In this document: piece after piece, positions 7,873 through 25,681 of the stretch
How the letters are laid out: every line of letters starts with the position of its first letter
Numbering within the stretch: the stretch's first letter is position 1
DNA from: Rubripirellula sp.
Lineage (GTDB): Bacteria > Planctomycetota > Planctomycetia > Pirellulales > Pirellulaceae
Direction of reading: 5' to 3'
Assembly (NCBI GenBank): GCA_965216875.1
Contig: OZ244207.1
Location: forward strand, 4,480,001 to 4,544,000
DNA length: 64,000 bases
The notes under the pieces: generated by a model
The model's database searches: none
Told to the model about the DNA's origin: nothing
What the model saw: only the letters and a program-made list of their open reading frames with translations
Translations under genes and position numbers: made by a program

Positions 7873-9282
7873 ATGATTCACCGAAACACAACGCCCCAAC
7901 CAGCCAAATCGCTGCCACGTGTTTTTGCTCGATTGGTCGCAACCTGGTTGGGTCTCGCACTGCTCACCCCAAACCTGATTGCCGATTCACCGAAGGATGA
8001 CGCTCGCCCGAATATCGTTTTCATCTTGGCCGACGATCTTGGTTACGGCGATCTCGGTTGCTACGGACATCCTGATGCCAAGACACCGCGGATTGATCAA
8101 CTCGCCGCGGAGGGTGTTCGCTTTACTCAGCATTATTCCAATGGCCCCGAATGCAGCCCAACGCGGACCGCTTTCTTGACGGGACGATATCAACAGAGCC
8201 TGCTCGGACTCGAATGTGCCATCGGCACCGGCAACGTGGGTCGCTACGACGACGCGATCAAACTCGCCAATGAACGGAATCTAGGCTTGGCCGCAGAAGC
8301 GACCGTCATCCCTGGACAATTAAAAAAGTCGGGATACGCCTGTGGCATCTTTGGAAAATGGCACCTCGGTTACGAACCACACTTCAATCCGATGATACAC
8401 GGCTGGGATTCGTTCTTCGGATACCTCGGCGGCAACGTCCACTACTTCAATCATCGGGAAACGAGTGACCTGCACGTTTTGTTCGATGGTGTGCTGCCGG
8501 TTCATCGCGAAGGCTACATGACCAAGCTGATCACAGACGCTTCGATCGAGTTCATTGAAAACGAAAGCGGTCCTTTCTTTCTTTATGTTGCCCACGAATG
8601 CCCCCACTTCCCGTACCAGGGTCCAGACGACGAGAACAAAGTGGTCAACGCCGACAACTGGATGGAAGTTGATCAGCGAGCCTACGTTGCCATGCTTGAA
8701 AACCTCGATTCGGAAGTTGGCCGCATCCTCGATTGCCTCGACCAAAAAGGCCTTTCGAAAAACACAATCGTTGTCTTTGCCTCCGACAACGGCGGCTTTG
8801 CCGGAGCCGCAAACATGAAACCGCTCTCGGGGGCCAAGGGCACAACCATGGAAGGCGGGATTCGAGTACCGCTGGTCGTCCGCTGGCCTGGGCAGATCTC
8901 TCCGAGCGTCAGTGATCAGGTTTCGCTGACTTTTGATTTGACCAAGTCATTCCTGAACCTTGCTGGCGCCGACACGAACACGCTGGCCCTCGATGGCATC
9001 GACATCCTCTCACACGTGGCAAACCGAGACCAAGATGTTGACCGCACTCTCTTTTGGCGCGGCAAGCGAGGCACGAAAGTGTGGTCCGCCGCGCGGGATG
9101 GCGACATGAAACTGGTGCGAAAACTTCAAAACGGCAAGCGAGAAGAGTCGCTCTTTGATCTGTCCACCGACATCAGCGAATCAAACAACCTGATCGACTC
9201 CAGCGCCAACACCGCCGCCAAACTCCGTGCCAGCCTTGACCAATGGGAATCCGACATGGCGGAACGCAGTAAGGCTCTATAA
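7873..9282 (+). CDS. Sulfatase (S1)
   Basis: PNIVFILADDLGYGD, CSPTRTAFLTGR, GKWHLG, SDNGG. Confidence 0.93.
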   Translation: MIHRNTTPQPAKSLPRVFARLVATWLGLALLTPNLIADSPKDDARPNIVFILADDLGYGDLGCYGHPDAKTPRIDQLAAEGVRFTQHYSNGPECSPTRTAFLTGRYQQSLLGLECAIGTGNVGRYDDAIKLANERNLGLAAEATVIPGQLKKSGYACGIFGKWHLGYEPHFNPMIHGWDSFFGYLGGNVHYFNHRETSDLHVLFDGVLPVHREGYMTKLITDASIEFIENESGPFFLYVAHECPHFPYQGPDDENKVVNADNWMEVDQRAYVAMLENLDSEVGRILDCLDQKGLSKNTIVVFASDNGGFAGAANMKPLSGAKGTTMEGGIRVPLVVRWPGQISPSVSDQVSLTFDLTKSFLNLAGADTNTLALDGIDILSHVANRDQDVDRTLFWRGKRGTKVWSAARDGDMKLVRKLQNGKREESLFDLSTDISESNNLIDSSANTAAKLRASLDQWESDMAERSKAL

Positions 9283-9419
9283 ATCCCGTCAAGGTTTCGC
9301 CAGCAGGCCTTGAGTTTGCCGCGAGCAAATGGCGATCCGTGGTTCACTCTTCGTCGCAACGTTGTTGGATCGAGAGCAAACCACGGATTGATTGAATCGC
9401 ACGAATAAGATTGCGCCTC

Positions 9420-10229
9420 CTAGCTTCGTTTGAAGGCGATGCCGCTTGACGCCGCTCCGTCGAGCTTGAAGGTGAACTGGTTGGCTGCACCCGTCCAGCT
9501 TCCGGCCATCTTTTGAAGATCGTTCGAACGCACCAATGTCAATTGACCGCCAGCGAGTCGAAATTGTCCTTGGAACATGCTCGACTTTCCCGCTCGATTG
9601 GCGGTCCACACAAAGCTGCCGTCCGCATTCAATTGCAGTTGAACGGACTGGTTGCCCGGCAGCGATGCCGTCCAGCGACCGACGTGATCGGCAGCCAGCT
9701 GCTGTTGAGATGCACTGACCTGTGCGCCCTGAGCGTTTGCTTGAATGCTTGGCGTTTGAGGGGCGGCCGCGTTGCTTTGTGAACTCTGACCACCCGACAT
9801 CGAAACGAGCAGTTGCAAAGCCGATGTCTCTGCGTTCGAAGCACTCACGGTTGACGGCTGAGCTGCCGGTGCTGGCGAAGGCGATTGCAATTTCTTTGGC
9901 GTTGAAACGGTTGCTGACGATTGACCGATTTGCCCAGCATTCGGTACGCCACCGGGTACTGGCATTCCAATTTGGCCGTGCACAGGTGCGACGCCATTGA
10001 TGGGCGGGGCGACAACGGGAGCGATCGCAGGTGGTTCATTGCAAATGGGCCTTTGCGGTGCGATGTAGACCGGTTGTCTCGCAACCGGATAGTGGCCGCG
10101 ACTCACCGAAACGAAAGACCGTCCACCGCGACCTCCGCACGCCGTCGCAGGGACGGTACAAGAAACACTGACTGCGATCGAGGCGGCGGCGAAAAACAAC
10201 TGTTTGATGCGACGTTTCATGGTTCTCAT
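9420..10229 (-). CDS. Secreted hypothetical protein: Pro/Ser/Gln-rich linker plus C-terminal beta-rich domain
   Basis: Signal peptide; C-terminus VGRWTASLPGNQSVQLQLNADGSFVW resembles the C-terminus of 11823-12710. Confidence 0.8.
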   Translation of the reverse strand: MRTMKRRIKQLFFAAASIAVSVSCTVPATACGGRGGRSFVSVSRGHYPVARQPVYIAPQRPICNEPPAIAPVVAPPINGVAPVHGQIGMPVPGGVPNAGQIGQSSATVSTPKKLQSPSPAPAAQPSTVSASNAETSALQLLVSMSGGQSSQSNAAAPQTPSIQANAQGAQVSASQQQLAADHVGRWTASLPGNQSVQLQLNADGSFVWTANRAGKSSMFQGQFRLAGGQLTLVRSNDLQKMAGSWTGAANQFTFKLDGAASSGIAFKRS

Positions 10230-10308
10230 TCCTGATCATTGGGATGCGATGGAAGGGTCTGTTTCGTGATGCGATCGTCTCGAGTTGTTGACGCCGCTCT
10301 CTGAATCA

Positions 10309-10336
10309 CCAAGCGAAACGAAATTCGCTTCGTTAC
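10309..10336 (-). promoter_or_regulatory. ECF-type promoter motif GTAAC-N16-CGCTTGG (copy 1)
   Basis: Minus strand GTAAC gaagcgaatttcgttt CGCTTGG, upstream of 9420-10229. Confidence 0.75.
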
Positions 10337-10369
10337 ACATAAATCCGACAATTTGAAACATGTCGGGCA

Positions 10370-11572
10370 TCAATCAGCCAACCAAGCAGCCAACGTATCG
10401 GTCGACGACTGCGTTTCCTTTTTCGGATTCAACTCTTTGCTCATGGCGCCGGCGATGCGGGCGACGTAGTCGATGGTCCCTTTGAGTGCTTCGTCGGGGG
10501 CAGTCGCGTCGAGCTTGGCAACATAGATGACCATGTGCTCGCCGCTTGACGTCTTTTCGATCGCCCAACCACCAATCTTGGTCGCTGCACTTTGGCGAAG
10601 GAGGCGATTCATCAGCTCGACTTTCGGAGCCTCCTTGCTGACCAAGACGAGCGACCAGATCTTGCGAACATCGGCTCGCTGGAAGTATTCGGTGTCTTTG
10701 GCAACAAAGACCGACTGTGTGCGGCCACCCGAGAGCGACTGCTTGATTTCGTAGTGTCCCGTGTCGTGCGTCTCGTGCTCGATTTCGGCGTTGTCCAAGA
10801 GTTCCTTGGTTGGCAGCGGCGCGGGCTTCCACGAGCTCGCCAAGAACGCTTTGATTTCTGCGATATCGACGCAGTAGCTTACGAGGGCACTTTGCGGAGA
10901 AAACGACTGAGCGATCGCAATCAATTCACCTTCTGCGTTGACGACGGGCCCGCCGCTGTCACCAGGTTTGATCGGGCTCTGAGTCTCGACGACGCGGAAA
11001 TCATATTCACCGTGGTTTGATTTGAACTTTTTGTCGTAAACCGAACGGACGCGACCCGATGTGTAGACCCAAAGCACGTCGCTGCCGCCCGGGTTTCCAA
11101 TCAAATCGACTTTCGATCCAGGTTTGGTACTCGAATCGGCCAGCTCAATTGCCTTGCCGTTCTTGGGCGACTTTGGCAGCTGGATGAGCGCCAGGTCACG
11201 TTTGCGATCGATCGCCACGACCTTTCCAGGTTGGGCCAGTTTGACCACGTTCGACAAATAGTGCTTTCGCTTGACCGCTGCCGTCCCGTCGGTCACGTCG
11301 GGGAAGAATACGACGGCCGAACGGCTATCACCGACGACGTGGGCGTTGGTGAGCACCAGACGTTTTTCGCCGTCGACGTAGACGCCCGTTCCGGTCGACG
11401 TTTTGTCGTCAGCGTCACTCGTGATGATCCATGCCGTTGATGCCAACGTCTCGGAGTAGTTGTCGGCATCAGCGTGGGCCGATTGAGCCGACAACGTCAG
11501 CAGTGCTGCGGCCGAGAAAGCAAAGAATACCGACTTCAATTTCGCGATCATGCTGGTACCAGAAAGGGACAT
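10370..11572 (-). CDS. Secreted trypsin-like serine protease with C-terminal YbjN/T3SS-chaperone-like domain
   Basis: Signal AHA-DA; triad motifs LTNAHVV, DLALI, PGDSGGP. The YbjN-like call for the C-terminal domain is inferred. Confidence 0.88.
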   Translation of the reverse strand: MSLSGTSMIAKLKSVFFAFSAAALLTLSAQSAHADADNYSETLASTAWIITSDADDKTSTGTGVYVDGEKRLVLTNAHVVGDSRSAVVFFPDVTDGTAAVKRKHYLSNVVKLAQPGKVVAIDRKRDLALIQLPKSPKNGKAIELADSSTKPGSKVDLIGNPGGSDVLWVYTSGRVRSVYDKKFKSNHGEYDFRVVETQSPIKPGDSGGPVVNAEGELIAIAQSFSPQSALVSYCVDIAEIKAFLASSWKPAPLPTKELLDNAEIEHETHDTGHYEIKQSLSGGRTQSVFVAKDTEYFQRADVRKIWSLVLVSKEAPKVELMNRLLRQSAATKIGGWAIEKTSSGEHMVIYVAKLDATAPDEALKGTIDYVARIAGAMSKELNPKKETQSSTDTLAAWLAD

Positions 11573-11636
11573 GGTTCACCTCGTTTTCGGCGCGGCCGGT
11601 GTCGGTCCGCATGGGAATGGGTTTGGCTCTAAGTCA

Positions 11637-11664
11637 CCAAGCGGGAAGCTGCCCAGGTTGTTAC
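11637..11664 (-). promoter_or_regulatory. ECF-type promoter motif GTAAC-N16-CGCTTGG (copy 2)
   Basis: Minus strand GTAAC aacctgggcagcttcc CGCTTGG, upstream of the protease. Confidence 0.75.
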
Positions 11665-11737
11665 AGATCGCCTGAGCTTTTTTTTGAGAGCATTGGGAGA
11701 TGGGCTGTGAGCTAAGAACACATAAGCGGCCGCGCCG

Positions 11738-11808
11738 CGTTTGTAGTCCCGAGCTTTTGCCGGAATCTTGAGGCTCTTCCGCCTAAAGGCGGTACTACGA
11801 ACGGTGCG
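11738..11808. repeat. GTAG-type REP-like element, inverted relative to 12851-13023
   Basis: CGTTTGTAGTCCCGAGCTTTTGCCGGAATCTT...CCGCCTAAAGGCGGTACTACGAACGGTGCG. Confidence 0.8.
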
Positions 11809-11822
11809 TGCAGAGCCCAATC

Positions 11823-12710
11823 TCAGCCAGCTTTCTTGAAGTTGAGCGTCATTGCGGTGCCGCCCTGAGCGTTCTTGATCTGCAGCTCGAAGGCGTCCTC
11901 TGGCGACTGATCGAATGTGCAGTCGAGAGTCACGTCGCCGTCACCAACGAGTTTCAATTGGTTGCCTGAGCGAACGACTCTCCCCTTCGAAACGGTCGAC
12001 TTGCCAGCTTTCACGTGGACCAATTGAAACCGAGCGTCGGCGGCGATCTGAATCGCGAAGGCTTCGTTGTTGGCCAACGACGCCGACCAACGTCCTGACA
12101 GCGAAGCGATGCTGGTCGAACGAGCGTTTGCCGCGGGCGACGCGGACCACAGATTGGCCTGTTTTTCAGCAAGCTGGGCCATGGCGTGCAGTTCGCTTTT
12201 CAGCCCGCTCGCGGTGACGGAACGATTCGAGATCGACGCGCGCACTTGCAGTGTTTTTGCGTTGGGATCATAGGCGAACGACCGCCCCTGATGATCGCCC
12301 GCAGCGAGGAGTTGAAGCAACGTTTGATTGCTCAATTGCGTGTCGCCGTCAATCTTGGCGAGTGTTAATCGACAGTCGAGCCGATCACGGTCGACGTCCA
12401 CGGCAATCGATGCGGGAAATTTCCAACTTGAGTGGGCCAGCGTGAGGGTGGCGTGATGATCCGAATCCTTCGCCTCCAAATTGGCCGTATTCAAGGTTTC
12501 GACAAGCGACGGAACGCTGGTGACGCGATCGACCGAGCCTGACACGTTTTTCGAAGCAACCGGGCTCACGTCGTCTGATTCTGACTCAGTAGTCGCATTC
12601 GACGCTTGAAAAACCGACTCCATCGCCACTTCGGAAAACAGCTCGTCTGCCTTCACTGGGGCCACGGACGCGAAGCTGATGAGCACAGTAAGAAGGGCTG
12701 AATGACGCAC
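11823..12710 (-). CDS. Secreted hypothetical protein with YbjN-like domain and C-terminal beta-rich domain
   Basis: Signal VKA-DE; LSGRWSASLANNEAFAIQIAADARF resembles the C-terminus of 9420-10229. Confidence 0.8.
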   Translation of the reverse strand: MRHSALLTVLISFASVAPVKADELFSEVAMESVFQASNATTESESDDVSPVASKNVSGSVDRVTSVPSLVETLNTANLEAKDSDHHATLTLAHSSWKFPASIAVDVDRDRLDCRLTLAKIDGDTQLSNQTLLQLLAAGDHQGRSFAYDPNAKTLQVRASISNRSVTASGLKSELHAMAQLAEKQANLWSASPAANARSTSIASLSGRWSASLANNEAFAIQIAADARFQLVHVKAGKSTVSKGRVVRSGNQLKLVGDGDVTLDCTFDQSPEDAFELQIKNAQGGTAMTLNFKKAG

Positions 12711-12766
12711 GATTTGGCTCCGATTTGGGTGTGCAATCGACGGAAAGGGTCTGTTTGAGTGCTATT

Positions 12767-12794
12767 CCAAGCGGAGCTCGGGTGAGAACGTTAC
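12767..12794 (-). promoter_or_regulatory. ECF-type promoter motif GTAAC-N16-CGCTTGG (copy 3)
   Basis: Minus strand GTAAC gttctcacccgagctc CGCTTGG. Confidence 0.75.
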
Positions 12795-12850
12795 AGGTTG
12801 TGTGCGTTTTTTTTCGCCCGTGAGCTGTCAGGCCTTGGGCCACACGCTTG

Positions 12851-13023
12851 CGCACCTTTCGCAGTAAAGCCTTTAGGCGGCGGGCAAAAAGATTCCGGCT
12901 AAAGCTCGGGACTACAAACGGCGGCCGGTCGCGCTCACGCATTCACGGCTCACGCACCGTTCGTAATAAAGCCTTTAGGCGGCGGGCAAGAAGATTCCAG
13001 CTAAAGCTCGGGACTACAAACGG
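12851..13023. repeat. Two direct copies (about 70 bp) of a GTAG-type REP-like element
   Basis: 12851-12921 and 12953-13023 share TAAAGCCTTTAGGCGGCGGGCAA...GATTCC.GCTAAAGCTCGGGACTACAAACGG. Confidence 0.85.
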
Positions 13024-13052
13024 GCAACAGAAAAATTGTTTTTGCAATTCTC

Positions 13053-13080
13053 GTAACAAACTCCGCGGGCTCTCGCTTGG
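13053..13080 (+). promoter_or_regulatory. ECF-type promoter motif GTAAC-N16-CGCTTGG (copy 4)
   Basis: GTAAC aaactccgcgggctct CGCTTGG, upstream of 13171. Confidence 0.75.
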
Positions 13081-13170
13081 CTACTCAGTCACGAAACGAA
13101 CGGGAACGACGAGACGCGGCAACTCACGCTTCCTTCCACTTTCAAACTGCCGTCTTTGGAGAACGAAACG

Positions 13171-13575
13171 ATGTTGAAGAAGATCCTTTTTGCAGTCGCA
13201 CCGATGATGTTGATCGCAAGCTCCGCCATGGCTGACGACAACCTGTTGGCAGCCGTCGCCAAGATGGACCTCGACTCGGCAAACGGTGCTTCGGTCGCAA
13301 CGATCGATGACGATGACTTGGGGCAAGCGGATGTCGATGCCTTGCTGGGCAACGACGAAGTGAGCGAAGAGGAAGCGATTGCAGCTTGCTTCCGTCGCGT
13401 CGGTTACGGCTACCGATATCGCGGCTGGGGTTACAGCAGCTACCGTTCATGCTACCGGTCGTACAGTTGCTTTCCTTCCTACAACTACTGCTACCGTCCA
13501 GTGAGCTACAGCTACTGCACGCCGACCTACACCCGCTACGCCCCAATCTACACCGGCTACTGGGGTTGCTGGTAA
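13171..13575 (+). CDS. Secreted pre-pro-peptide with acidic pro-region and Tyr/Cys/Arg-rich C-terminal core
   Basis: GGAGA RBS, signal AMA-DD, acidic segment, ACFRR, then 58 aa with 16 Tyr and 5 Cys. Confidence 0.85.
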   Translation: MLKKILFAVAPMMLIASSAMADDNLLAAVAKMDLDSANGASVATIDDDDLGQADVDALLGNDEVSEEEAIAACFRRVGYGYRYRGWGYSSYRSCYRSYSCFPSYNYCYRPVSYSYCTPTYTRYAPIYTGYWGCW

Positions 13576-13761
13576 GTCGCTGATGCGAATCGTTGCGGGC
13601 ACTCGAGAGCCCAACCTCTCAAGTGCCCAACCTCTCAAGTATCCGGCACCGACACAACTCGATGCTCTATCGCCCAACGCCCGGCTCCACGTTTGATCGT
13701 GGTCGCCGGGCTTTTTTTCGACACTCCCAAACCAATTGAAATCCAAGAAAAAGGTCCTCCG

Positions 13762-14550
13762 ATGAACCGCACCCGTCTCATGCAATGTTTGCTTGCCACA
13801 GGTTTCGTGATTTCTGCGAGCCTGAACGTCCCCGCTCAGCAGATTAGCCCCGCACAGCAGATTAGCACCTCTGAAGTCCTGCACCGTACGAATCGATGCG
13901 ATCACGTGATTGCGTTGATCCACCGACACGGCGTCAACAACAGCGTCAACCGAGCTGTTGGCAACGCAATGATTCACCATGCTGCTTTCGGCGGCATCGT
14001 TGTTGATGAATCCGACGTTGGTGACTTGCAACTCGCGGGAGTCAACCAGATCGTCGACCAAGACTCGACATGCGGGCCCAAGTTTGCCGTCCTGATTCGC
14101 AACCAAAGCAACCGAGTGGTCAGCAACTTTCGCCTCTCCGCCGTCGGCACCCTCGGTCGCATCTCGCCCTTTTCGCCAAGCACAACGATCACGGTGGGAG
14201 CCATCGGCGCTGGCGAAACGTTGCAGGTCGAGATCACTCTGCCGCTCGAAGCACTGGCGATGGGTAACCGTAATGGCCAGATCATCGGTCTGCAGCGATT
14301 GGTGATTGCCATCGACAGTTTCGACGAATTGGCGGAAACGAACGAAGCGAATAACCTGCATGCGTTCAACCTTGCACAGATCCCAACGCTGACGCTTCCC
14401 GTCGAAACAACGTCGGTATCAACGACTGAAGTGCAAGTCGATGCACCGACAACGCAGGTACCGGCGACGGAGCCGACCACTCAAACCGACCGACTGCGTT
14501 CCGCCATCGAGAAACTCGCCGTCGAGCAAACGGGCGGGGCGGTGAATTGA
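13762..14550 (+). CDS. Secreted protein with CARDB-like Ig domain
   Basis: Signal peptide; IGAGETLQV...IDSFDELAETNEANN is a CARDB-like ending. Confidence 0.75.
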   Translation: MNRTRLMQCLLATGFVISASLNVPAQQISPAQQISTSEVLHRTNRCDHVIALIHRHGVNNSVNRAVGNAMIHHAAFGGIVVDESDVGDLQLAGVNQIVDQDSTCGPKFAVLIRNQSNRVVSNFRLSAVGTLGRISPFSPSTTITVGAIGAGETLQVEITLPLEALAMGNRNGQIIGLQRLVIAIDSFDELAETNEANNLHAFNLAQIPTLTLPVETTSVSTTEVQVDAPTTQVPATEPTTQTDRLRSAIEKLAVEQTGGAVN

Positions 14551-14600
14551 GAAGGTCGAAAAGCTCAAGTACGATTTGTGCCGCCTTCGGGCGGCGGGAT

Positions 14601-16862
14601 CTATTCGCTTTCGACGGGAACGTCTGATCCGCGTGTCGACAAGACTTCAGCCATTCGATCCCATCGATGAGTGATCTGCAAGAATGCCAAGAACGACGCG
14701 ATCAACCCGACCACTCCCGCCGCAATCGCGGTCAGCATGAACCCGCGGGCTTGGCTTTGACTGGAAATGATCAAAGCGGCGCCGAGCTGCGGAATGATCG
14801 CGGCAAACAGCAAGTAGACTTGGCTGCGGCGAAACATTTTTCGACGGCGTTTGTCAAAGTCATCGTCCTGCATCGAACCACCGACCAAGTGGGGGTAGTA
14901 GACCAACGTTGAAACCAGGGCGAGACCAAAGAATGGATAGATCATCGCGACACTGCCGCAGATCAACAGCGAAATGAAGAAGTGCGCGGCCTGAGCAGCG
15001 GTAAAGTCGGGATACATCGTCCAGAGAGCGAGTGGATAGATCAATCCAGCGGCCATCCAAAACGAACCCCCGATCACCGCCGCGCGATGCCCCAAGTTGA
15101 GCGTATCGTCGATGTTTTGACTCGAGACACGTTCACCGCGATTGGCCAATCGTATGCCGCGCACCATCCCCGAAGCGAACCACACCATGACGGGAATCGC
15201 CAACGGATAGGCCACCAAGTTGACGCAAATTGCGATCTTGTTCAGGCCATCGCGCATCTCACTGTCGAGAATCTCTTGATGGTTGTAGTCATAGTTGAAG
15301 ACGCCGCCAGCGATGTTCGGCAGTAGGATTGCCGCAACTGCGACAAGCCATGGCGACACCTTGGCCAAACGGGCGACCATCGAGTCTTCGGCCGGATCAA
15401 ACAGCTCGGCTGCCTCGGGATGCAACGCGAGACTCAGCCGCGCCGCCATTTGTGCGCCACTTTGCGGCCGATCTTCAACGGAGACCGACAATGCACCGCG
15501 AAGCGTTTTTTCCAACACGCGTTCCGACGCCGTGCCAGTTCGAACCGGCTCCAATAGCGGCAACTCTCTTGCCGCCAGTTGGCCTTGCACCGCATCGCCC
15601 CAAGAATCGACACCTTGCCGACACGCAAAGGGCCGTTGCCCCTGCCACAACTCCCAAAGCAAAACGGCAAGGGAATACAAGTCCGCGGCTTCGGCGACTT
15701 CGGCGGGTTGTTCAAGCCATTGGGCGCTGATCGCGCGCAAGTGTTCGGGGGCCATGTAGCCAATGGAACCACCAAACGAGGTCGCCGCGCCTGCCCTGCC
15801 TGCCGCCCCAGCAAAACTGACATTGAAGTCGGCAAGCTTCGGAGTCCCTTCTGCAGTCAACAAGACGTTTGCTGGTTTGACATCGCGATGCAGAACACCT
15901 TGGTCATGAGCAGCGTCCAAAGCGCGCGCCAATTGCATTCCGATCCACGCGACAACCGTCGGCCAGCCTGCCATTGCAATCCAATCGCGAATCGGCGAGC
16001 GGTCCGGGACGGCCTGGGCAGTGCCAAGCAAATTGCGATCGATGGTATCAAGTAAAACGTCACGCGGTGTTCCCGAGGGATGTTGGCGTAAGCTTTTGAC
16101 GACATCCGCCAACGTACCTCCAGGATGGAATTGCATGTAAAGCAAATGCAACGGCGGCTCTTCAATCGCCCGTTGGTCAAACACCCGCACGATGTTTGGA
16201 TGGTCAAACTGAGCCAGTGCGCGCGGTTCGTCACCGCTGCCCAAGGACACTTTCAATGCCACCAATCGATGCATTGATACTTGGCGAGCCAAATAGACGT
16301 GAGCAAACGCGCCCTGGCCAAGTTTTTGGATGATCAAAAAATCGTCGCATTGACTTCCGACGACCAACTCGGGCGGAGCACCGCGTTGCTCGACAGCCGC
16401 AGTCGCCTCGGCTGTTCCGATCAATTGTGCGAACATCCCTTCGAACTGAGGGAAACGGTCGCAATACTCCTCGCGCTTCGGCAGGTCACCCGATTCTTTC
16501 CGAAGCTGAATCTCTTCCATCACCAAATCGATCGGAATGGCGTCTTTTGACAACCACTCTGGCAACGCGTCGACGTAGCGTTCAATCCGATGTTGTTTGC
16601 CCGCCTCGGCCGACATCGCCAAGTCCATCTTGATCAGCTCGACCAACACGTACCGAGCGTCCGAGGGCTCGATCGGAGGCAGTATTTCACCGAGCTGGCG
16701 CGGGTCGTCAGTCGGTCCACACTCAATCAAACGTTCGAGACACTCAGCGATAACGTCATCGACGTCAACGTTGGCGATGTCCTCTGCAGCATCGGCTTCG
16801 TTTTGCTCGCGCTGCGGGCGATCCCACGAGTCGTCGTCTCGATCAAGCGGCGTGGGCGACAT
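14601..16862 (-). CDS. Membrane-bound Hanks-type Ser/Thr protein kinase
   Basis: LGQGAFAHVY, VALK, HRDVKPAN, KLADFN, GYMAPE; several C-terminal TM helices. Confidence 0.93.
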   Translation of the reverse strand: MSPTPLDRDDDSWDRPQREQNEADAAEDIANVDVDDVIAECLERLIECGPTDDPRQLGEILPPIEPSDARYVLVELIKMDLAMSAEAGKQHRIERYVDALPEWLSKDAIPIDLVMEEIQLRKESGDLPKREEYCDRFPQFEGMFAQLIGTAEATAAVEQRGAPPELVVGSQCDDFLIIQKLGQGAFAHVYLARQVSMHRLVALKVSLGSGDEPRALAQFDHPNIVRVFDQRAIEEPPLHLLYMQFHPGGTLADVVKSLRQHPSGTPRDVLLDTIDRNLLGTAQAVPDRSPIRDWIAMAGWPTVVAWIGMQLARALDAAHDQGVLHRDVKPANVLLTAEGTPKLADFNVSFAGAAGRAGAATSFGGSIGYMAPEHLRAISAQWLEQPAEVAEAADLYSLAVLLWELWQGQRPFACRQGVDSWGDAVQGQLAARELPLLEPVRTGTASERVLEKTLRGALSVSVEDRPQSGAQMAARLSLALHPEAAELFDPAEDSMVARLAKVSPWLVAVAAILLPNIAGGVFNYDYNHQEILDSEMRDGLNKIAICVNLVAYPLAIPVMVWFASGMVRGIRLANRGERVSSQNIDDTLNLGHRAAVIGGSFWMAAGLIYPLALWTMYPDFTAAQAAHFFISLLICGSVAMIYPFFGLALVSTLVYYPHLVGGSMQDDDFDKRRRKMFRRSQVYLLFAAIIPQLGAALIISSQSQARGFMLTAIAAGVVGLIASFLAFLQITHRWDRMAEVLSTRGSDVPVESE

Positions 16863-17030
16863 GCAGTGAACTTAGAAGACGACGTACAAAGGGTCTTCGA
16901 TTGCGAAGCAAAACCTGCCCCGATCGCGCAAACCTTGTCCTGATCGAAACGACCCTGCGAACCAACAGCGTTTACTGTAGATTGGAGGGCTGTCTCCGAC
17001 TACCTCGCTCTCTCAACGCGCAGCAGTACG

Positions 17031-17654
17031 ATGATGGATGAAAACGATGATTCGGATCGGGTTCTGCAGATCAAAGAGCGGGATTCGCAAGCGTTGGCCG
17101 CCTACATCCAAGACAACCGGTCTCAGCTCGAGCGGTTTCTCAGGTCGATTACGGGTGAACACTTGCTTGCGGTGGTCGAAGTGGACGATCTGATCCAAGA
17201 AATCTCGACAGCAGCTCTAACCGGTCTGCCCACCGCGCCGCTCGATCAGTACGAGCCGATGCAATGGTTGCAGCAGATTGCCAGGCGCCGCGTGGTCGAT
17301 GCGCACCGTTTTCACTTTGATGCCAAGCGGCGCGATGTGGGCCGGCAAAAATCGTTGAACGCCGCGGCCAGTCCCGACGCTTCCATGATGGGTCTCGAAC
17401 AGCTTTTGGCGGCGAGTATGACGTCACCAAGCGCTGTGGTCAGCCAGGACATTCGAATGTGCCGGATCCAGCAAGTGATCGAAGAGCTGCCCGATGAACA
17501 GAAGCAGGCAATCCGAATGCGCTACGTCGACGGTTTGCCGACCAAACAGATTGCCGAGGAACTTGGCAAAACCGATGTCGCCATCCGCGTGCTCCTTTCT
17601 CGCAGCATGCGTCAACTCGAAAAGCAGCTCGAAGACGTCCGACCAACACGCTGA
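17031..17654 (+). CDS. ECF RNA polymerase sigma factor (planctomycete kinase-associated type)
   Basis: DDLIQE, WLQQIARRRVVD, linker TSPS, sigma4 LPDEQKQAIRMRYVDGLPTKQIAEELG. Confidence 0.92.
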   Translation: MMDENDDSDRVLQIKERDSQALAAYIQDNRSQLERFLRSITGEHLLAVVEVDDLIQEISTAALTGLPTAPLDQYEPMQWLQQIARRRVVDAHRFHFDAKRRDVGRQKSLNAAASPDASMMGLEQLLAASMTSPSAVVSQDIRMCRIQQVIEELPDEQKQAIRMRYVDGLPTKQIAEELGKTDVAIRVLLSRSMRQLEKQLEDVRPTR

Positions 17655-17669
17655 CAGTCGCGGAACAAT

Positions 17670-17946
17670 CACCCTCCCGCTTGCGGGAGGGTCGGACGCA
17701 AACTCCGGGGAGGGAATGATTTCCATAGAACAAACCCTCTCTGGGCCCGTGAGCCGTACGCGCTAGCGTCGGGCCCTGGGAAATTCACACGAGTGCAAGG
17801 CCCGACGCTAGCGCGCTGGGCTCACCATTTGTAGCTACCTTCGCCAGAAGGTAGTTCCCATTGGCAGGCCGGCTTCCACGATCACCACGCTCTGGCGAGC
17901 GTAGCTACCAAGCGTGGTAAGGCCCGACGCTAGCGCGCTGGGCTTA
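17670..17946. repeat. Mosaic of REP-like palindromic elements
   Basis: CCCTCCCGCTTGCGGGAGGG; CCGTGAGCCGTACGCGCTAGCGTCGGGCC...GGCCCGACGCTAGCGCGCTGGGCTCAC, whose right arm is repeated at 17920-17946; GTAGCTAC...GTAGCTAC at 17831-17908. Confidence 0.8.
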
Positions 17947-17977
17947 CAAAAAAGTTACGTCCTCTCGGAAAAAAACG

Positions 17978-18005
17978 GTAACACTCGGCCCTCCACTCCG
18001 CTTGG
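17978..18005 (+). promoter_or_regulatory. ECF-type promoter motif GTAAC-N16-CGCTTGG (copy 5)
   Basis: GTAAC actcggccctccactc CGCTTGG, upstream of 18064. Confidence 0.75.
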
Positions 18006-18063
18006 CAAATAGAAACGGCAACTCACCCGCCGCAGAACACGTCTCAAATCGCCACAGGACAGA

Positions 18064-18588
18064 ATGATGAGCCGCTCCAAAACCACGCAAATCCTGCTTT
18101 TTTCCGCCGCCTGTTCCGTTCTGCTGCTCAGCGCCCCCACCGCCGAAGCCGGCAATGGTTGGGGTTGGAAAAAACCGATGAATCAGAAAATGGGAGCGTT
18201 CTACACCGGCAACAAAAAACTGCGACGCTCGTCCACATCGAGCTCGAGCCACTCCTCGCGTTACCGCCACTCGACTCATTCGACCTACCGAACGGTGACA
18301 CCCCGTACCTATCATTCCGCTCCGGTCGTCGTGAAGACCGTGCCCCAAACCGTGATGCCCATCCAACCGGCTCCCGTCACCCACGCGCCCTCCGCAACGG
18401 TACCGCCCCCAACACAGACTGCTCCGATCACAACGGCATTGCCCGAGCAGCCCCTGGCCGTTTCTGCCGCTCAACCCAAACCGGCGACTGCAAAGCCAGT
18501 GCAGGTCCCAACCCAGAAAGCGGAACAAGCCCCACCGACCGCAGAACAACAAGCCCTCGAGCTCCTTGGTCCTTGGCTCGCAAAGTGA
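18064..18588 (+). CDS. Secreted low-complexity hypothetical protein
   Basis: Signal AEA-GN; basic Ser/His/Tyr-rich segment followed by a Pro/Thr/Ala-rich tail. Confidence 0.75.
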   Translation: MMSRSKTTQILLFSAACSVLLLSAPTAEAGNGWGWKKPMNQKMGAFYTGNKKLRRSSTSSSSHSSRYRHSTHSTYRTVTPRTYHSAPVVVKTVPQTVMPIQPAPVTHAPSATVPPPTQTAPITTALPEQPLAVSAAQPKPATAKPVQVPTQKAEQAPPTAEQQALELLGPWLAK

Positions 18589-18829
18589 GCAAAGGACATT
18601 GGACAGAAAGATGAGGGACAAAAAATGGTCGGTCACCCAACCTGATCATCAAGCCACGCGCCATCATCTTTCTGTCCCCCATCTTTCTGTCGACCACTCT
18701 TCAACCACTTACGAAGCCCCTCCGTCTTCGTTTTTCTGCCAACTCTTTTCTCCATTTCTGTCACAGGCCACTTTCTTCCGTGTCCAAGTAAGAAACCCCC
18801 CGCTTCTTGGCACAAAAAAGGTCTGTGAA

Positions 18830-19237
18830 ATGAAATACTGTCACGAGTTCATCGAAATCGATTGTCCTGTCGACGACGCCATGGCATTGTTTGGCGACCC
18901 ATTGCGTCTGCCCGAATGGGCGATTGAATACTGTCAAACGATCGCGAAAACCGATAGTGGCTATGTTGCCGAGACGGTCGAAGGCTCACGTTGCTTCAAC
19001 ACTCGCGTCGATCGTGCGATGGGAGTGGTTGACGCTTGTTCGGGTTCCAACCACGACCAATTGAATGACATCCTGCATATTCGTTTGGTGCCCGCGGCAG
19101 ACGACAAAACGCTTGCGAGCTTCATCTACTCTCCACCAGGACAGGTCCCGCCGGAAGTGCTTCAACTGATGCAAACGGGACTCAACAAAGAGGTCCAACA
19201 CGCCAAAGCGATGCTTGAATCCGCCGTGCTCCAATAG
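18830..19237 (+). CDS. SRPBCC/polyketide-cyclase-like protein
   Basis: IEIDCPVDDAMALFGDPLRLPEWA is a START/SRPBCC-like N-terminus; ATG 18830 chosen as start. Confidence 0.65.
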   Translation: MKYCHEFIEIDCPVDDAMALFGDPLRLPEWAIEYCQTIAKTDSGYVAETVEGSRCFNTRVDRAMGVVDACSGSNHDQLNDILHIRLVPAADDKTLASFIYSPPGQVPPEVLQLMQTGLNKEVQHAKAMLESAVLQ

Positions 19238-19294
19238 CGATTCCACGTGCGATGAGTCCAACCCCGCTTCGAGTTCGCTAGCCACCGAGTTGTC

Positions 19295-20188
19295 ATGGTT
19301 TCTGAATTGACCAACCCCTTCCAGGAAGATCCTCATATCGATGTGACCGACCAACAGTTGGTTGCCCAGGCGTTGGAGGGCAGTGGAGATGCGTTAGAGA
19401 AACTCGTTGCGGGTCATCAAGCTTGGCTATTCAACATCGCCGTGCGCATGGTCTGGAATGCGACGGATGCCGAAGACGTGGTTCAAGAAGTGATGATCAA
19501 GGCGGTCACAAAACTCTCCACCTTCCGAGGCGAGAGTTCGTTTCGCACTTGGTTGTACCGCATCGCTTGCAATCACGTCTTGAATATGAAACGTCGCACC
19601 TCGGAAGAACAGTTAGTGAGTTTTTCGCAATTCAGCGACGATCTCGACCGAATCCCCGATCGCGAATTGCCCGATCCCGAATCAGTGCCCGTTGACCTTC
19701 CGGTCCTCGTCGAGGAAGCGAAACTCGGTTGCCTCTCTGCAATGCTCCTCGGCCTCGATCGCCGCCAGCGGCTCGCCTACACGCTTGTCGAATTGCTGGG
19801 AGCGAGTTCACAGACGGCTGCCGAGTTGATGGAGATCACACCGGCCAACCTGCGCCAAATCGTCCATCGAGCGCGCCAGGAACTTTATCAGTTCATGAAT
19901 GGCAACTGCGGTTTGGTGAACAAAGACAACCGCTGTCGGTGTGCGGCCAAAACGCCATCGTTCATCGACGCTGGTTACGTTGAACCGGCGAACATTCGCT
20001 TTGCAGATGCATCCGCTCCAAGACTTGACACTAACGCCAAGTCACTTGAAGTGCTCGAATCGAGGGTCGACCAACTGCATCGCGAACAACAGCAGCAAGC
20101 GCGATTCATGACGCCGCCCGATGCAAAGAACTCGCTGATGCGATTTTTGAGTGATCCAGCCGTCCGTGAAACACTTTGCCTCGACTAA
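19295..20188 (+). CDS. ECF sigma factor with Cys-rich C-terminal extension
   Basis: DAEDVVQE, FRGESSFRTWLYRIACN, then CGLVNKDNRCRC after sigma4. Confidence 0.9.
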   Translation: MVSELTNPFQEDPHIDVTDQQLVAQALEGSGDALEKLVAGHQAWLFNIAVRMVWNATDAEDVVQEVMIKAVTKLSTFRGESSFRTWLYRIACNHVLNMKRRTSEEQLVSFSQFSDDLDRIPDRELPDPESVPVDLPVLVEEAKLGCLSAMLLGLDRRQRLAYTLVELLGASSQTAAELMEITPANLRQIVHRARQELYQFMNGNCGLVNKDNRCRCAAKTPSFIDAGYVEPANIRFADASAPRLDTNAKSLEVLESRVDQLHREQQQQARFMTPPDAKNSLMRFLSDPAVRETLCLD

Positions 20189-20214
20189 GCCGCGGGGCCA
20201 GATCCCCGAGCTGT

Positions 20215-20712
20215 TCAGCCGATACTGATCACGCTAGGCATTCCCAATTCGCGGCGAATCTGGCTCAGCTGTCCCGTATGCAATGACAGATGCGTCGTCA
20301 TCAGATGGCCAAGCAAATCGCCGATGGTTGGTAATTCTTCGACCAAGAAGGGCGTCGGGTTTGGCTGATCCAAATGCTCGTCAGTGACTTGCTGGAACGC
20401 CGCAGCCAATTTGTCGCCTGACTCTTTCAGATGGGCGACAAGTGATTGTTGTGTTCGGCCGTCATCGCCGATCTTTCCGCCGGGGCTGTTCGGACCGTAC
20501 GTGGGCATCATGTCCTGAATGGACGCCTGCGGCTGGCCAAGCAGATTGAGCCCAAAATCCATGCCCAGTGCAAGATGACCTGTAATCCATTTTGGACTGT
20601 TCGATCCCCCGCGAGGCTCGTCAAACGCTTCTGGCGACAGTCCACTCGCTGCCTCTGCCGCCATCATTCGCATCAACTCAAACAAACGTAACATCGTTGG
20701 CGCTTGTGCCAT
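20215..20712 (-). CDS. DinB-family protein
   Basis: NSPKWITGHLA and HLSLHTGQL motifs. Confidence 0.82.
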   Translation of the reverse strand: MAQAPTMLRLFELMRMMAAEAASGLSPEAFDEPRGGSNSPKWITGHLALGMDFGLNLLGQPQASIQDMMPTYGPNSPGGKIGDDGRTQQSLVAHLKESGDKLAAAFQQVTDEHLDQPNPTPFLVEELPTIGDLLGHLMTTHLSLHTGQLSQIRRELGMPSVISIG

Positions 20713-20808
20713 CGGTGGGACTCCTTACAAAACATCATCGAACGAAGTGGAACGCGAACGAAACTACCGCCAACCATCCGTTTCATCAACGTGGCATTGA
20801 GGGCTAAG

Positions 20809-23800
20809 TCACTCAGTTGCCGAAGGTTCGTCGGTTTGCACTTTCCTTTTGACGCCAACGTTCCGAGCGTACGTCTGGTAGCGAACATTGGCGTGAATCT
20901 TTGGTTCGAGCTTGCTGTCCTCGAGAGCGCGAACGGTCGCCCGATACCGACCGACTTCCGCCTCTTCCAAGAGCGCGGGAATGACTTCGGTGCCCATGCG
21001 ACCGTCAATCATCCAATTCACTTCAATCGGTTTCCCTTCCTTTTCGAGCAGCTCCGCCCACACGTCGAGACTTTGTGATTGAAATGAATTGGCGTCTTCA
21101 ACGTTGTCAGAGTCGTCGCCATTCTCAGCGTCGGTGACACCCGTTTCGTCGTCCGCTTTGAAGACCAACGTGAATTCCGGCATCGTATCGTAGATTGGCA
21201 AACGATCTTTCCATGCCAGCTTGCTTGGCAAGTCAGGACCGACCCAAATCCCCATTTCATTGTCGTATTCAAAGGCAATCGAATCGGCTGTCGCAAAGGC
21301 TCGGGCCGTATCGAATAAGCGCTGCGCTGGCTTCGCCTTTTGATCAATGACTTCGATCACAAGCGTGCTGGTTGGCCTCGCAAACCGACTCTTCTGCTCC
21401 TCGGGGATCTCTTGCGTATCGATTTGCTGACTCGTGTAGGTGAACAGCAACACATCACCGTCGCCCGATCTGGCAACCCAACACTGCCAATCGTCATTCA
21501 TTGAGTTGAGCTCCGAAACAGCCACATCGCTCCACATCTTGCCAAGCCCCGCTTTCAAACGTGACTCATCGAATGTCTCAGCATCCGACAAGACAAGATC
21601 ACCCGTTTCGATTGGCTGGATTTCTCCCATCACCAACGGACAAACCGCGAGCAACTCGGATGGAACGTCAGCATCTGTTTCCAACAGCGCGAAATCGTCG
21701 ATGGCAGATTCGATGAGTGACGAATCGACTTCCTCTGTTGCTTTTGCAAACGCTTCGGCATCGTGGTCGAGGAACGCCTGAATGGCTTCGGACGAGAGTT
21801 GGTGCTTGTACTCCACCATTTCGGAGCGGACCTTTAGCATTTCATCGATACGACCAGCACGCCGAAGCAAGCGAGCAAGCTGGCGTTGACGTGAGTAATG
21901 AGGGTAGTGCTCGCGTTCGCTCAATTCTTCGGCCGATCTTGCAGAGTCGATCGCACCATCGAGATCACCATCGCTGGCAAGAAACTGCGCAACGTTTTCT
22001 TCGCATTCCGCTTTCGCTTCCTTGTCGATCTCTACCAACGATACCCAGGCCGCTCCCTGCTCGACCATCTTCGGGTCGTGCAAACGAGTGGCTTCGTCAA
22101 TAAATGCGACCAGAAATTGGCCGCGATAATCGAGGTGCTGGCTGTCAAAACCGAACGCCGGCGGATCGAGTTGAACGAATCGATTCCTTGCAGCCATGGC
22201 GGCACGCTGACGAACCAACTGCCGAAGGCGGTATTCTGTTTCTTCACCGCCCAAGCAAAAACTGAACGCCTTCCGATGCATCTCATCCGCCTTGGCGTAA
22301 TCACCTTCTCGGGCATGCTTCTGAGCGAGCAGGCGGTGTTTTTGAGCCTGAAGTGTCCGTGCAGCGTTTGCCCGGGTATCGGCAACAAACAAAGACGACA
22401 TCTGCGGATCATTCTGGTTGACCAAAAAGTCGCCAATCTGAAAATGCCGCGCTTCGTCGTCAGGAAAATAGCTCGCCGCATCAGTAAATCGTTTGTCCGC
22501 AAGCAACGACTCAACCATGTAGTAGTTGATCGAATCGGAAACCCACTCTTCGTCTTCAGTCAACAATTCGGGCAGACGTTTCAGCTCTTGTTTCAAATCT
22601 TCCCACACGTCGACCGCTTTGGCGTGTTCTTCGTTTTCGTAGGCGCACCAACCGATCAATCCCTTGCCCCAAAAGTTCTTTGACGCTTTGTCGTGCGTTT
22701 GCAGAGCATCGGCGAGCTTTTCGATGTCGCCATAAAAATCGTCATCGATCGCCTCCATGAAGGTGTCTTTCAGCAGTTCATCGAGATCATCGACTTCGTC
22801 AAAAAGCGTTTGAAACTGACCATTCTCATAACGCAAATCTCGCAAGAACTCGATCGCAAGACCGTGCATGATGCCATCCGGAATAGCCTTTTCGCGCGCA
22901 GCAATGAAGCGTTCAGCCGCCTTTTCGACATCTTCGTCTTCGTCGCTGCTACGGCCCTCAAAAACCTCAACGCCACCCTCTGGAACATCCGATCGTTGTT
23001 TCATCTCCGCGACAACGGCGGCAAGCCACTCGGGGCTCATGTAGCTTTGGTACGCGAGGTTTCGCCAAAGGTAATCCTCTTCGCATGCGACAATCGAATC
23101 GATCAGTTCTGGGACATCTTCGACTCGCTCTTGATTCATCACGTGCGAAATGGAACTTGAATCGTCTGGCAGTATTCTCAAGAGCTTGATCGCCGCATCT
23201 GCCGCTTGCGCGTCGTTGGCCAAGCCGTCATAAGCTCGGTTGAAGACCCATTGCACGTTTGGGTGATCAGGCGAGATCTTTGCCGCCTCTTTGGCGGCGT
23301 GCAGCGCGCGTTGGTAGTCACCCTGGTTGATGTAGCAACTCCCAAGTGATGTCCAAACGCCCCAGAGTCGATCGCGTCGTTTGATGGTTTCCAAGACGCG
23401 TGCGGCTTCGTCATAGCGATTCATCGCCATCCAGTTGTATGCAAAGTGGAGCTTTGCCACGGGCGCATCGAACTTGAGCATCGGAATGCGTTCGGCCGAA
23501 CGCATCAGGCGTTCACCTCGTTCGGCTTCACCTTCCTGCCAAGTTTCGTATCCGCGCGCCGCCCGATTGAGGGCAGTGTCAAATCCTTCGGCTTGCGGCG
23601 ACACCCCGGTCATAAAGCTGGCGTACTCGTCAGAGACACGACGTCCCTCTTCGAACAACAACCAATCGTAGAGCTTCCAGCCCTCTTCCTTTTTGACGAA
23701 GTAAAACCGGTAGCTATCGGTCAAACTGTCGGTCGAGTAGAGCAACACATCCATCGAAGCCAACTTGCCGTCTGGATCTTCATACACGGCAAGGATGCGA

Positions 23801-24276: not shown

Positions 24277-24431
24277 GTCGCGTGCTCGCTAAATAAGTTC
24301 TTGCCGAAATAATTAGAGCCCCCCAATCATAATGTCCCTCGTCGCCCGCTGCGGGGTACCAAACAGGGTGAAGGAGGATGCTGGGGACCGTTGGAAGGAT
24401 CGGAGATGCGATAGCGGGCCACATCGATCCT

Positions 24432-25376: not shown

Positions 25377-25449
25377 AGAAACCGGCTTTGGGGATCTTTA
25401 GAAGAGGTGTCTGATTGGCCGCAAACAGAATTTGTCACTGCCTAACGCA

Positions 25450-25478
25450 AATAACGAACGATTATGAATAACGAACGA
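25450..25478. promoter_or_regulatory. Putative LysR operator (T-N11-A palindrome within a 12-bp direct repeat)
   Basis: ATAA-CGAACGA-TTAT at 25451-25465; AATAACGAACGA at 25450-25461 and 25467-25478, in the divergent LysR/MFS intergenic region. Confidence 0.6.
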
Positions 25479-25681
25479 CCAATGGGCAACGTCCTCGCCA
25501 TCGTTTGACACGGCCAAACCAACGTAAAGCTCGACCAAACGGTCACCGCGGGTTTGGCAAAAAACCAGCGATCAACGCGATCCCAAACGGCATTGCGGCC
25601 TGTACGAATCGTCGTGATCGCGTACACTCGCTGCATCTCCATCCGAGCCCTCTTCTCTGATCCCTTTCTGGGCGTTGCTGA

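Follow-up and report, generated by a model that had tools for sequence, protein, structure and literature searches.

A compact set of conserved promoter-like sites ahead of exported-protein genes, probably read by a neighbouring kinase-linked ECF sigma factor in Rubripirellula sp.

In a 64,000-nucleotide stretch of the genome of Rubripirellula sp. (GenBank assembly GCA_965216875.1, contig OZ244207.1, positions 4,480,001 to 4,544,000; hereafter the window), the bipartite element GTAAC-N16-CGCTTGG precedes five genes for predicted exported proteins that flank a divergent gene pair for a sigma factor of the extracytoplasmic function (ECF) class and a membrane Ser/Thr kinase. The locus raises the question of whether these elements are promoters, which factor would read them, and what would set the activity of that factor. 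A first-pass annotation of the window had proposed that the sites are ECF-type promoters, that their genes constitute one exported-protein set, and that this set is probably driven by the sigma factor and kinase embedded in it. A compact ECF regulon of exported proteins (T1 to T6; Table 1) tied to the neighbouring sigma factor is well supported by the comparison of related genomes. We consider it probable that the five sites are promoters read by this sigma factor, the activity of which is predicted to be set by the kinase.

All five exact matches reported in the first-pass annotation were re-found with their positions and strands (Table 1), and the mean in 100 dinucleotide shuffles of the window was 0.00. 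The whole genome (8,264,643 bp, a single contig) contains the same five exact matches and no others, all of them inside 7.7 kb. Base composition predicts 1.15 such sites per genome, and the probability that five uniformly placed sites cluster in 7.7 kb is about 4e-12. When the spacer of GTAAC-N-CGCTTGG was varied from 12 to 20 nt, the genome-wide counts were 0, 1, 1, 0, 5, 0, 2, 0 and 0. With up to two mismatches allowed, the window has 13 matches versus 4.3 expected, and the eight inexact ones are near background. A reversed control pattern (the motif read backwards, uncomplemented) gave 7 matches in the genome versus about 1 expected, dispersed from 0.03 to 7.9 Mb and with flanks that share nothing. 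This surplus is unexplained, and is probably due to chance or codon bias. The signal therefore resides in the clustering, intergenic position and orientation of the sites, and not in their raw count.

All five sites are intergenic and oriented toward the downstream gene, and the distance from the end of the motif to the start codon is 79 nt for T1, 64 nt for T2, 56 nt for T3, 90 nt for T4 and 58 nt for T6. The earlier description of intergenic, coding-strand sites ahead of signal-peptide genes thus holds at a measured 56-90 nt, and the heuristic analysis of the N-termini given below agrees with it. The sites are also not copies of a repeat element, as had been stated: their 16-nt spacer sequences differ, and the repeats resembling repetitive extragenic palindromes (REP-like) in the same intergenic regions are sequences separate from the motif. 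An AAC-type -35 element, a CG-type -10 element, a fixed spacer and an oriented position upstream of a gene, the features of an ECF-type promoter, were found at 5/5 sites. The TGG extension of the -10 element is invariant at all five sites here and variable in three of the related genomes described below (G040, G016 and G010); stronger selection, a sigma-specific contact and sequence homogenisation are candidate explanations of this invariance.

Table 1. Features of the locus in window coordinates (aa, amino acids; pI, isoelectric point).
Feature	Coordinates	Strand	Description
T1, 269 aa, predicted exported	9420..10229	-	Cys/Arg/Pro/Gln-rich low-complexity region; C-terminal ~85-aa barrel-like domain
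Promoter-like site before T1	10309..10336	-	exact match; predicted start 10302; purine at +7
T2, 400 aa, predicted exported HtrA-like serine protease	10370..11572	-	Trypsin_2 E 3.7e-26
Promoter-like site before T2 (protease)	11637..11664	-	exact match; predicted start 11630
T3, 295 aa, predicted exported	11823..12710	-	type III secretion chaperone-like fold 59-188; lipocalin/NlpE-N-like 8-strand barrel 206-293
Promoter-like site before T3	12767..12794	-	exact match; predicted start 12760
Promoter-like site before T4	13053..13080	+	exact match; predicted start 13087
T4, 134-aa precursor-like protein	13171..13575	+	signal peptide; acidic region pI 4.1; EEAIxACFR junction; basic C-terminus
Terminator-like hairpin + U7 tract between T4 and T5	13679..13718	+	RNA fold -25.1 kcal/mol, z -4.28
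T5, 262 aa, predicted exported	13762..14550	+	sub-threshold CARDB-like stretch; no motif of its own
Ser/Thr kinase, 753 aa	14601..16862	-	Pkinase E 2.9e-29; divergent from sigma, 168 nt apart
ECF sigma factor, 207 aa	17031..17654	+	Sigma70_r2, r4_2, r4; TIGR02937 79 bits vs cut-off 42.9
Promoter-like site before T6	17978..18005	+	exact match; 324 nt past sigma stop codon; predicted start 18012
T6, 174 aa, predicted exported, basic pI 10.5	18064..18588	+	Pro/Thr/Ala/Ser-rich, low-complexity
Second ECF sigma factor, 297 aa	19295..20188	+	~90-residue Cys-containing C-terminal extension; 1.6 kb from first sigma

Relatives were searched for in 41 genomes, including the genome that carries the window (G000), and the sigma-centred loci of the relatives amount to 19 loci and 305,788 bp. 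In G040, which belongs to another family and has a sigma factor 38% identical, the cassette has the same order (T1, T2, T3 / T4, T5 / kinase / sigma), and GTAACA-N15-CGCT is found upstream of T1, T2, T3 and T4. In G023 the genes preceded by the motif are two T4 paralogs, a 328-residue gene in the place of T5, T2, T1 and T3; T2 and T1 still have a kinase-like gene beside them, and the sigma gene is located elsewhere. This kinase-like gene is split over two reading frames (L047, G023:C10, 11258-13173), and the first open reading frame of the T3 ortholog in G023 ends after 77 residues (L051, G023:C10); both may represent frameshifts or assembly errors. The closest sigma factor (67% identical) is that of G016, where T4, T3 and a T1-like gene, each with the motif, are located on a contig other than that of the sigma/kinase pair. 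For T3 and T4 the picture is the same in G036 and G230, with the motif kept. Six sites surround the sigma/kinase pair of G010, the clearest five of which precede exported proteins with Cys/Gly/Arg/His/Tyr-rich N-terminal regions and a T2-like protease.

Taken by gene, the motif precedes T3 orthologs in 6/6 genomes having T3 and T4 in 7/7 genes (6 genomes), and T1 and T2 orthologs with the motif are present in both G040 and G023. Full-length T3 and T4 are each found in the same five of the 41 genomes, all five of which have the sigma factor. Motif-bearing genes share their locus with the sigma/kinase pair in G000, G040, G010 and G230, and in G032, G006, G007 and G273 the sigma gene is, as in G000, directly followed by a same-strand copy of the motif. 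The first-pass annotation had made its reading depend on conservation of the motif in orthologs; the motif is kept before orthologs in other genera and families, and the reading was not refuted. Its three central proposals gain comparative support. This support comes from the conservation, just described, of the motif with its 16-nt spacing, from the enrichment of the motif around orthologs of the sigma factor, and from the single copy of the sigma subfamily in this genome.

The two halves also show a marked preference for a spacing of 16 nt. Within the 19 sigma-centred loci, GTAAC-N-CGCT has 19 sites at N16 (in 9 loci), 6 at N17 and 0-1 at N12-15 and N18-20. A 17-nt spacing was considered as an alternative and rejected, as none of its six matches resembles the N16 sites. 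Two of the six, each in a different genome, fall within the sigma coding sequence on the antisense strand, over the same conserved codons (L028 10041(-), L029 10357(-)), a coding coincidence that inflates the 17-nt count. We also compiled 38 sites with a pattern fixing only GTAAC and CG[CT][CT]. At the unfixed positions, T precedes GTAAC in 26/38 sites and A follows it in 34/38, a purine is found at +7 after the heptamer in 34/38 (A in 25), and G at +8 in 23/38. The +7 base at the five G000 sites is A, A, A, A and G. Read as a transcription start, this T-A-G signature predicts positions of about -13 to -10 for CGCT and about -34 to -30 for GTAAC. The comparison yields a concrete candidate for the conserved target motif, tGTAACa-N15-CGCT(TGG).

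The sigma factor itself contains the sigma2 and sigma4 domains only, as ECF factors do, and its relatives in the PDB are ECF sigmas. It scores 101.2 bits with the NCBIfam model TIGR02984 (Sig-70_plancto1), under the curated cut-off of 183.75. The subfamily is represented by a single copy in G000 at E<=1e-20, and at the same threshold matches are present in 21 of the 41 genomes, G000 included; no match was found in two same-genus genomes (84% and 97% complete). A phylum-wide search, in which the best 10 candidates per genome were scored, found the sigma factor in at least 15 of 301 genomes at E<=1e-40. The region upstream of the sigma gene (16863-17030) has no GTAAC and no match to the motif with up to two mismatches, and the gene is predicted not to be autoregulated in G000. 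In G036, and there only, the sigma ortholog has a site of its own, GTAAC-N16-CGCTATA, 44 nt ahead of it (L046, G036:C451, 3597(-)), which suggests autoregulation in that lineage, unlike in G000. A comparison by eye of sigma residues with the bases after CGCT revealed no clear pattern of co-variation.

The divergently encoded kinase consists of an N-terminal helical-repeat domain (residues ~34-159), a Hanks-type kinase domain and a C-terminal part with ~6-7 hydrophobic segments, as read by eye. A kinase of like architecture is adjacent to the sigma gene in 13 of the 19 loci, across families. The model of the N-terminal domain has a predicted local distance difference test score (pLDDT) of 83.5. 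Foldseek returned no match to it at E<=0.001, and VIA-align gave generic helical-repeat/TPR-like matches with a best Z of 7.8, a range that the tool calls common. No anti-sigma domain emerged from these structure searches, a result that excludes nothing. Judged from the open reading frame list and Pfam results, the genes of the cassette have no evident anti-sigma-like gene between them.

A conserved motif, LL.AS(M/I/L)T(S/T)(P/A)S with the core SMT[ST]PS, is located in the linker that joins sigma2 to sigma4. Across 20 orthologs T131 never varies, and conservation is at least 90% at S129 and at S134. The sigma profile has 144 matches at E<=1e-30 among representatives at 50% identity. Of the 37 best full-length ones, 32 contain the motif, and in the lower score bins it is found in 13/20, 4/18 and 4/28. 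We infer that SMT[ST]PS is a candidate site of phosphorylation by the kinase.

The following course of events is proposed. The kinase would sense a signal through its multi-pass membrane part, and the sigma factor would thereby be activated, most plausibly through phosphorylation of the linker SMT[ST]PS by the kinase. RNA polymerase with the sigma factor encoded at 17031 would bind the promoter through GTAAC (about -34 to -30) and CGCT (about -13 to -10), and transcription would begin at the conserved purine 7 nt past the heptamer. The output would be the co-induction of T1, T2, T3, T4 and T6, with T4 as a highly expressed Tyr/Cys-rich precursor and T5 made at a lower level by read-through of the terminator.

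Several observations weigh against this proposal, and some of them would suit other explanations. No GTAAC-N16-CGCT is present in the fetched flanks of 10 of the 19 sigma-centred loci, nor was the motif seen within 1.5 kb of the sigma gene in the 11 loci of family f18 or in G248. The neighbourhood argument, on which the sigma-motif link rests, is therefore limited; targets may lie away from the sigma gene, because the motif-bearing genes of G016 sit on another contig. Genome-wide, the relaxed motif GTAAC-N16-CGCT has 35 matches compared with 22-38 at other spacings and is not in excess, so motif statistics alone cannot bound the size of the regulon. As almost all of the 49 one-mismatch sites of the genome fall within long open frames and the relaxed motif shows no excess, no further regulon members are seen in the genome. 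An intergenic near-match at genome position 2558925(-) was left out of the regulon; the protein encoded downstream is not export-like. The loci that show no nearby site could mean that the five sites are ECF-type promoters read by a different sigma factor (that of 19295-20188 or another), with the local pair a bystander or a regulator of something else. A first look at this genome gave 94 ECF-like candidates, and the second ECF gene of the window starts 1.3 kb past the last site. Near the cassette, however, G040, G023, G010 and G016 all lack a homolog of the second sigma factor. Among the loci, tblastn gave a single match to it, 28% identical and in one unrelated locus, and searches of G001 and G002 at E<=1e-30 did not find it. 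The company that the local pair keeps with motif-bearing genes in four genomes, the motif directly after the sigma gene in four others, and the sigma ortholog in every genome with full-length T3 and T4 likewise make a different reader unlikely in our view. It is less probable still that the motif is the operator of a DNA-binding activator or repressor, with transcription from housekeeping promoters. A LysR-type regulator is encoded in the same 16-kb stretch (24432-25376), but the motif is asymmetric and always gene-oriented, and its AAC- and CG-type halves with a fixed 16-nt spacing are typical of ECF promoters. The start-like T-A-G signature moreover recurs at a fixed distance downstream, and a scan for sigma-70-like promoters was empty in these intergenic regions, its single match in 9000-19500 being at 14547.

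Promoters read by the neighbouring sigma factor thus remain the preferred reading, and the role of the kinase has to be weighed separately. The sigma factor might read these promoters without kinase control: its regulation could lie in its own transcription or in an anti-sigma factor that escaped recognition, and the kinase could have other substrates. The acidic residues of sigma2.2 are kept (EVDDLIQE here, [DE]xx[DE]xxQ[DE] in most relatives), so the charge-switch mechanism of ECF43 sigma factors, discussed below, is not applicable, and the linker phosphosite is deduced from conservation, which could instead reflect contacts within RNA polymerase. Four sigma loci with flanks of roughly 4-10 kb per side (L030, L034, L036, L037) have no adjacent kinase, and the site before the sigma gene of G036 points to autoregulation there. 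On the other side are the kinase of the same architecture next to the sigma gene in most of the related loci, the lack of an evident anti-sigma-like gene among the cassette genes, the kinase-like gene of G023 that remains with T2 and T1 though the sigma gene is elsewhere, and the subfamily specificity of the Ser/Thr linker motif. On these grounds we regard a sigma factor free of kinase control as possible, if doubtful, and kinase control as plausible and somewhat favoured.

The proteins encoded by the cassette have in common a basic N-terminus followed by a hydrophobic stretch. In a 12-residue window, the mean Kyte-Doolittle hydrophobicity is 2.2-2.6 in the five motif-preceded proteins and 2.0 in T5, versus -0.4 to 0.9 in three cytoplasmic control proteins; the signal-peptide calls thus represent a Kyte-Doolittle heuristic and not the output of a predictor. 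The C-terminal domain of T1 is shared with T3 (BLASTP 40% identity over 55 residues, E 5e-10). A Pfam scan of T1 gave no family, and NCBIfam only a weak match to TIGR03066. T6 matches no Pfam or NCBIfam family.

T2 is most similar among solved structures to the protease domains of Deg8 (chloroplast Do-like protease 8), DegP and HtrA (E 3e-11 to 4e-10). Its catalytic motifs are NAH at 76, DLA at 126 and GDSGGP at 204, so that it resembles the HtrA/DegP proteases in having a trypsin-like domain with His, Asp and Ser motifs. Members of that family combine such a domain with at least one PDZ domain, whereas no PDZ match was detected in T2 at E<=0.01 in Pfam, and all scores against the NCBIfam HtrA/DegP models are far below cut-off; the protein therefore falls outside the family as defined. 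In place of a PDZ domain, T2 has a C-terminal domain with a weak YbjN match (Pfam, E 0.13).

The AlphaFold (AF2) model of T3 (pLDDT 79, from a 35-sequence alignment) has two domains. According to Foldseek, the first is similar to ExsC (3kxy; template modelling (TM) score 0.65-0.70) and also to SicP, CesT and SycE, with target-normalised TM scores of 0.60-0.70 and 12-20% identity. The second domain matches lipocalin-like and NlpE N-terminal barrels. The 50 homologs of T3 are planctomycete wherever the source name bears an organism, and some are named 'type III secretion system chaperone' by NCBI; T3 itself has no Pfam or NCBIfam family. Its predicted fold is like that of the class I type III secretion chaperones, to which T3 adds a signal-peptide-like N-terminus and a fused lipocalin-like barrel. 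Pfam and NCBIfam scans of 12 neighbouring proteins revealed no secretion-system family. Given this N-terminus and the lack of a secretion-system gene in these scans, the fold appears to be shared, and the name of a secretion chaperone is unwarranted. The label 'YbjN-like protein' in the first-pass annotation does not stand for T3 either, given its predicted fold, the weak YbjN match being that of the T2 C-terminus.

The basic C-terminus of T4 is Tyr/Arg/Cys/Gly-rich (26% Tyr, 13% Arg, 6 Cys, pI 9.3) and ends in YWGC[YW], and the EEAIxACFR junction that precedes it is conserved. No Pfam or NCBIfam family was found for T4, and the protein Atlas contained planctomycete hypothetical clusters only. 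None of 200 shuffles was as stable as the hairpin between T4 and T5, and a hairpin with a T-run of like kind is located between the two genes in G040. T5 orthologs follow T4 in G040 and G023, the 328-residue gene of G023 having its own motif. Because the terminator hairpin precedes T5, this protein is probably made by terminator read-through, which is more likely than simple co-transcription. The first-pass annotation had placed a probable CARDB protein downstream of the Tyr/Cys-rich peptide; this assignment was not upheld, as the CARDB match of T5 reaches 16.7 bits compared with a threshold of 22.7, and the gene lies behind the strong hairpin.

The cassette is located in a stretch of ~16.4 kb (window ~9283-25680) that constitutes an indel relative to the same-genus genome G002. 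In G002, the ortholog of the sulfatase whose gene ends at 9282 here has the ortholog of the MFS transporter at 25682 as its next neighbour, no more than about 320 bp downstream. The ~9.3-25.7 kb segment was thus either inserted in G000 or deleted from G002. Besides the cassette it encodes the second ECF sigma factor, a DinB-like gene, a 1155-residue TPR protein and the LysR regulator; no mobility gene was recognised in it, and its GC content is unremarkable, with no compositional anomaly. A 135-residue gene without family (18830-19237, +) precedes the second ECF sigma gene. Between the first sigma gene and the T6 promoter (17749-17947), a GC-rich element of ~30 nt is present in three copies, one of them inverted; with 221 genomic copies of its 17-nt core, it is a REP-like dispersed repeat. 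The T3/T4 intergenic region (12846-13023) contains two tandem-spaced copies, 91% identical, of a 76-nt repeat with an inverted partial copy after T3 (11726-11810), the core of which is rare (5 copies in the genome).

A more far-reaching interpretation, which we hold to be improbable at present, is that the cassette is a self-contained unit in which a linker-phosphorylated sigma factor and five near-identical promoters produce extracellular material from Tyr/Cys/Arg-rich pro-proteins. The unit would reside in a 16-kb insertion and be governed by a 7-pass receptor kinase, and phosphorylation of the linker would add, to the sigma2.2 charge switch of ECF43, a second and independent way of activating a sigma factor by phosphorylation. 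The acidic region of T4 would serve as a pro-piece, and the co-induced protease T2 would mature the pro-proteins, which would be escorted by the exported proteins that have a secretion-chaperone fold (T3, and T2 in its C-terminus). Either an adhesive or cement-like matrix or a defensin-like antimicrobial would result.

The type of switch considered here is already known, and this regulon is a cleanly defined example of that kind. Planctomycetes have dozens of ECF sigma factors; for their kinase-linked groups, the published group descriptions give no characterised member and no conserved target promoter; the present locus supplies a concrete conserved motif. It also yields predicted start sites and a small, clean regulon, and together these would therefore offer a ready reporter system for the control of a sigma factor by a Hanks-type kinase, including a candidate phosphosite. 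Five exported proteins of unknown function would be tied into one unit, among them a Tyr/Cys-rich precursor family and proteins with a secretion-chaperone fold.

Classical ECF promoters include those of B. subtilis SigW (TGAAAC-N16-CGTA) and E. coli RpoE (GGAACTT-N16-TCAAA). The sites described here agree with the classical type in that their -35 element contains AAC, their -10 element starts with CG and their spacer is a rigid 16 nt. They differ in that the -10 element is CGCT, extended to CGCTTGG, and in that the sigma gene has no such motif of its own. Full-text literature searches returned no description of the present motif.

In arrangement, the locus resembles ECF43, represented by EcfP-PknT of Vibrio parahaemolyticus and EcfK-PknS of Xanthomonas citri, where the gene for an ECF sigma factor adjoins that for a transmembrane Hanks-type kinase, with no anti-sigma gene. 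The divergent kinase 168 nt away, with its adjacent counterparts in related loci, corresponds to this arrangement. ECF43 is described as proteobacterial, with members that lack the acidic DAED motif in sigma2.2 (PMC7826278, PMC8999054) and have a phosphorylatable Thr instead, whereas the sigma factor described here keeps EVDDLIQE. A role for the linker has precedents: Hanks kinases are reported to phosphorylate Thr/Ser residues in the linkers of EcfK and M. tuberculosis SigH (PMC13147305), in EcfK besides the sigma2.2 Thr (PMC13147305, PMC8999054). The kinase encoded here further differs from those of ECF43 in its multi-pass C-terminal membrane region and N-terminal helical-repeat domain. The outputs differ as well: those known for ECF43 comprise resistance to polymyxin and a type VI secretion system, and the output here would be a set of exported proteins.

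Counterparts are also found among planctomycete ECF groups that are linked to a kinase, namely ECF59, ECF61, ECF62 and ECF217 (Casas-Pastor et al. 2021, PMC7826278). As described there, the kinases of ECF61 and ECF59s1 have transmembrane helices numbering five or six or more, and ECF217, from Rhodopirellula and Pirellula, has no characterised member. A multi-pass membrane kinase beside the sigma gene, as in ECF59, ECF61 and ECF217, is also what this locus appears to have, a likeness based on hydrophobic segments read by eye. The group descriptions of ECF59, ECF61, ECF62 and ECF217 report a lack of conservation in their predicted promoter motifs, and that of ECF59 gives only 'a conserved TC in -35' (PMC7826278). 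According to the introduction of the same paper, the promoter predictions for the groups rest on autoregulation. In contrast to promoters predicted in that way, the motif described here stands before the target genes, and not before the sigma gene.

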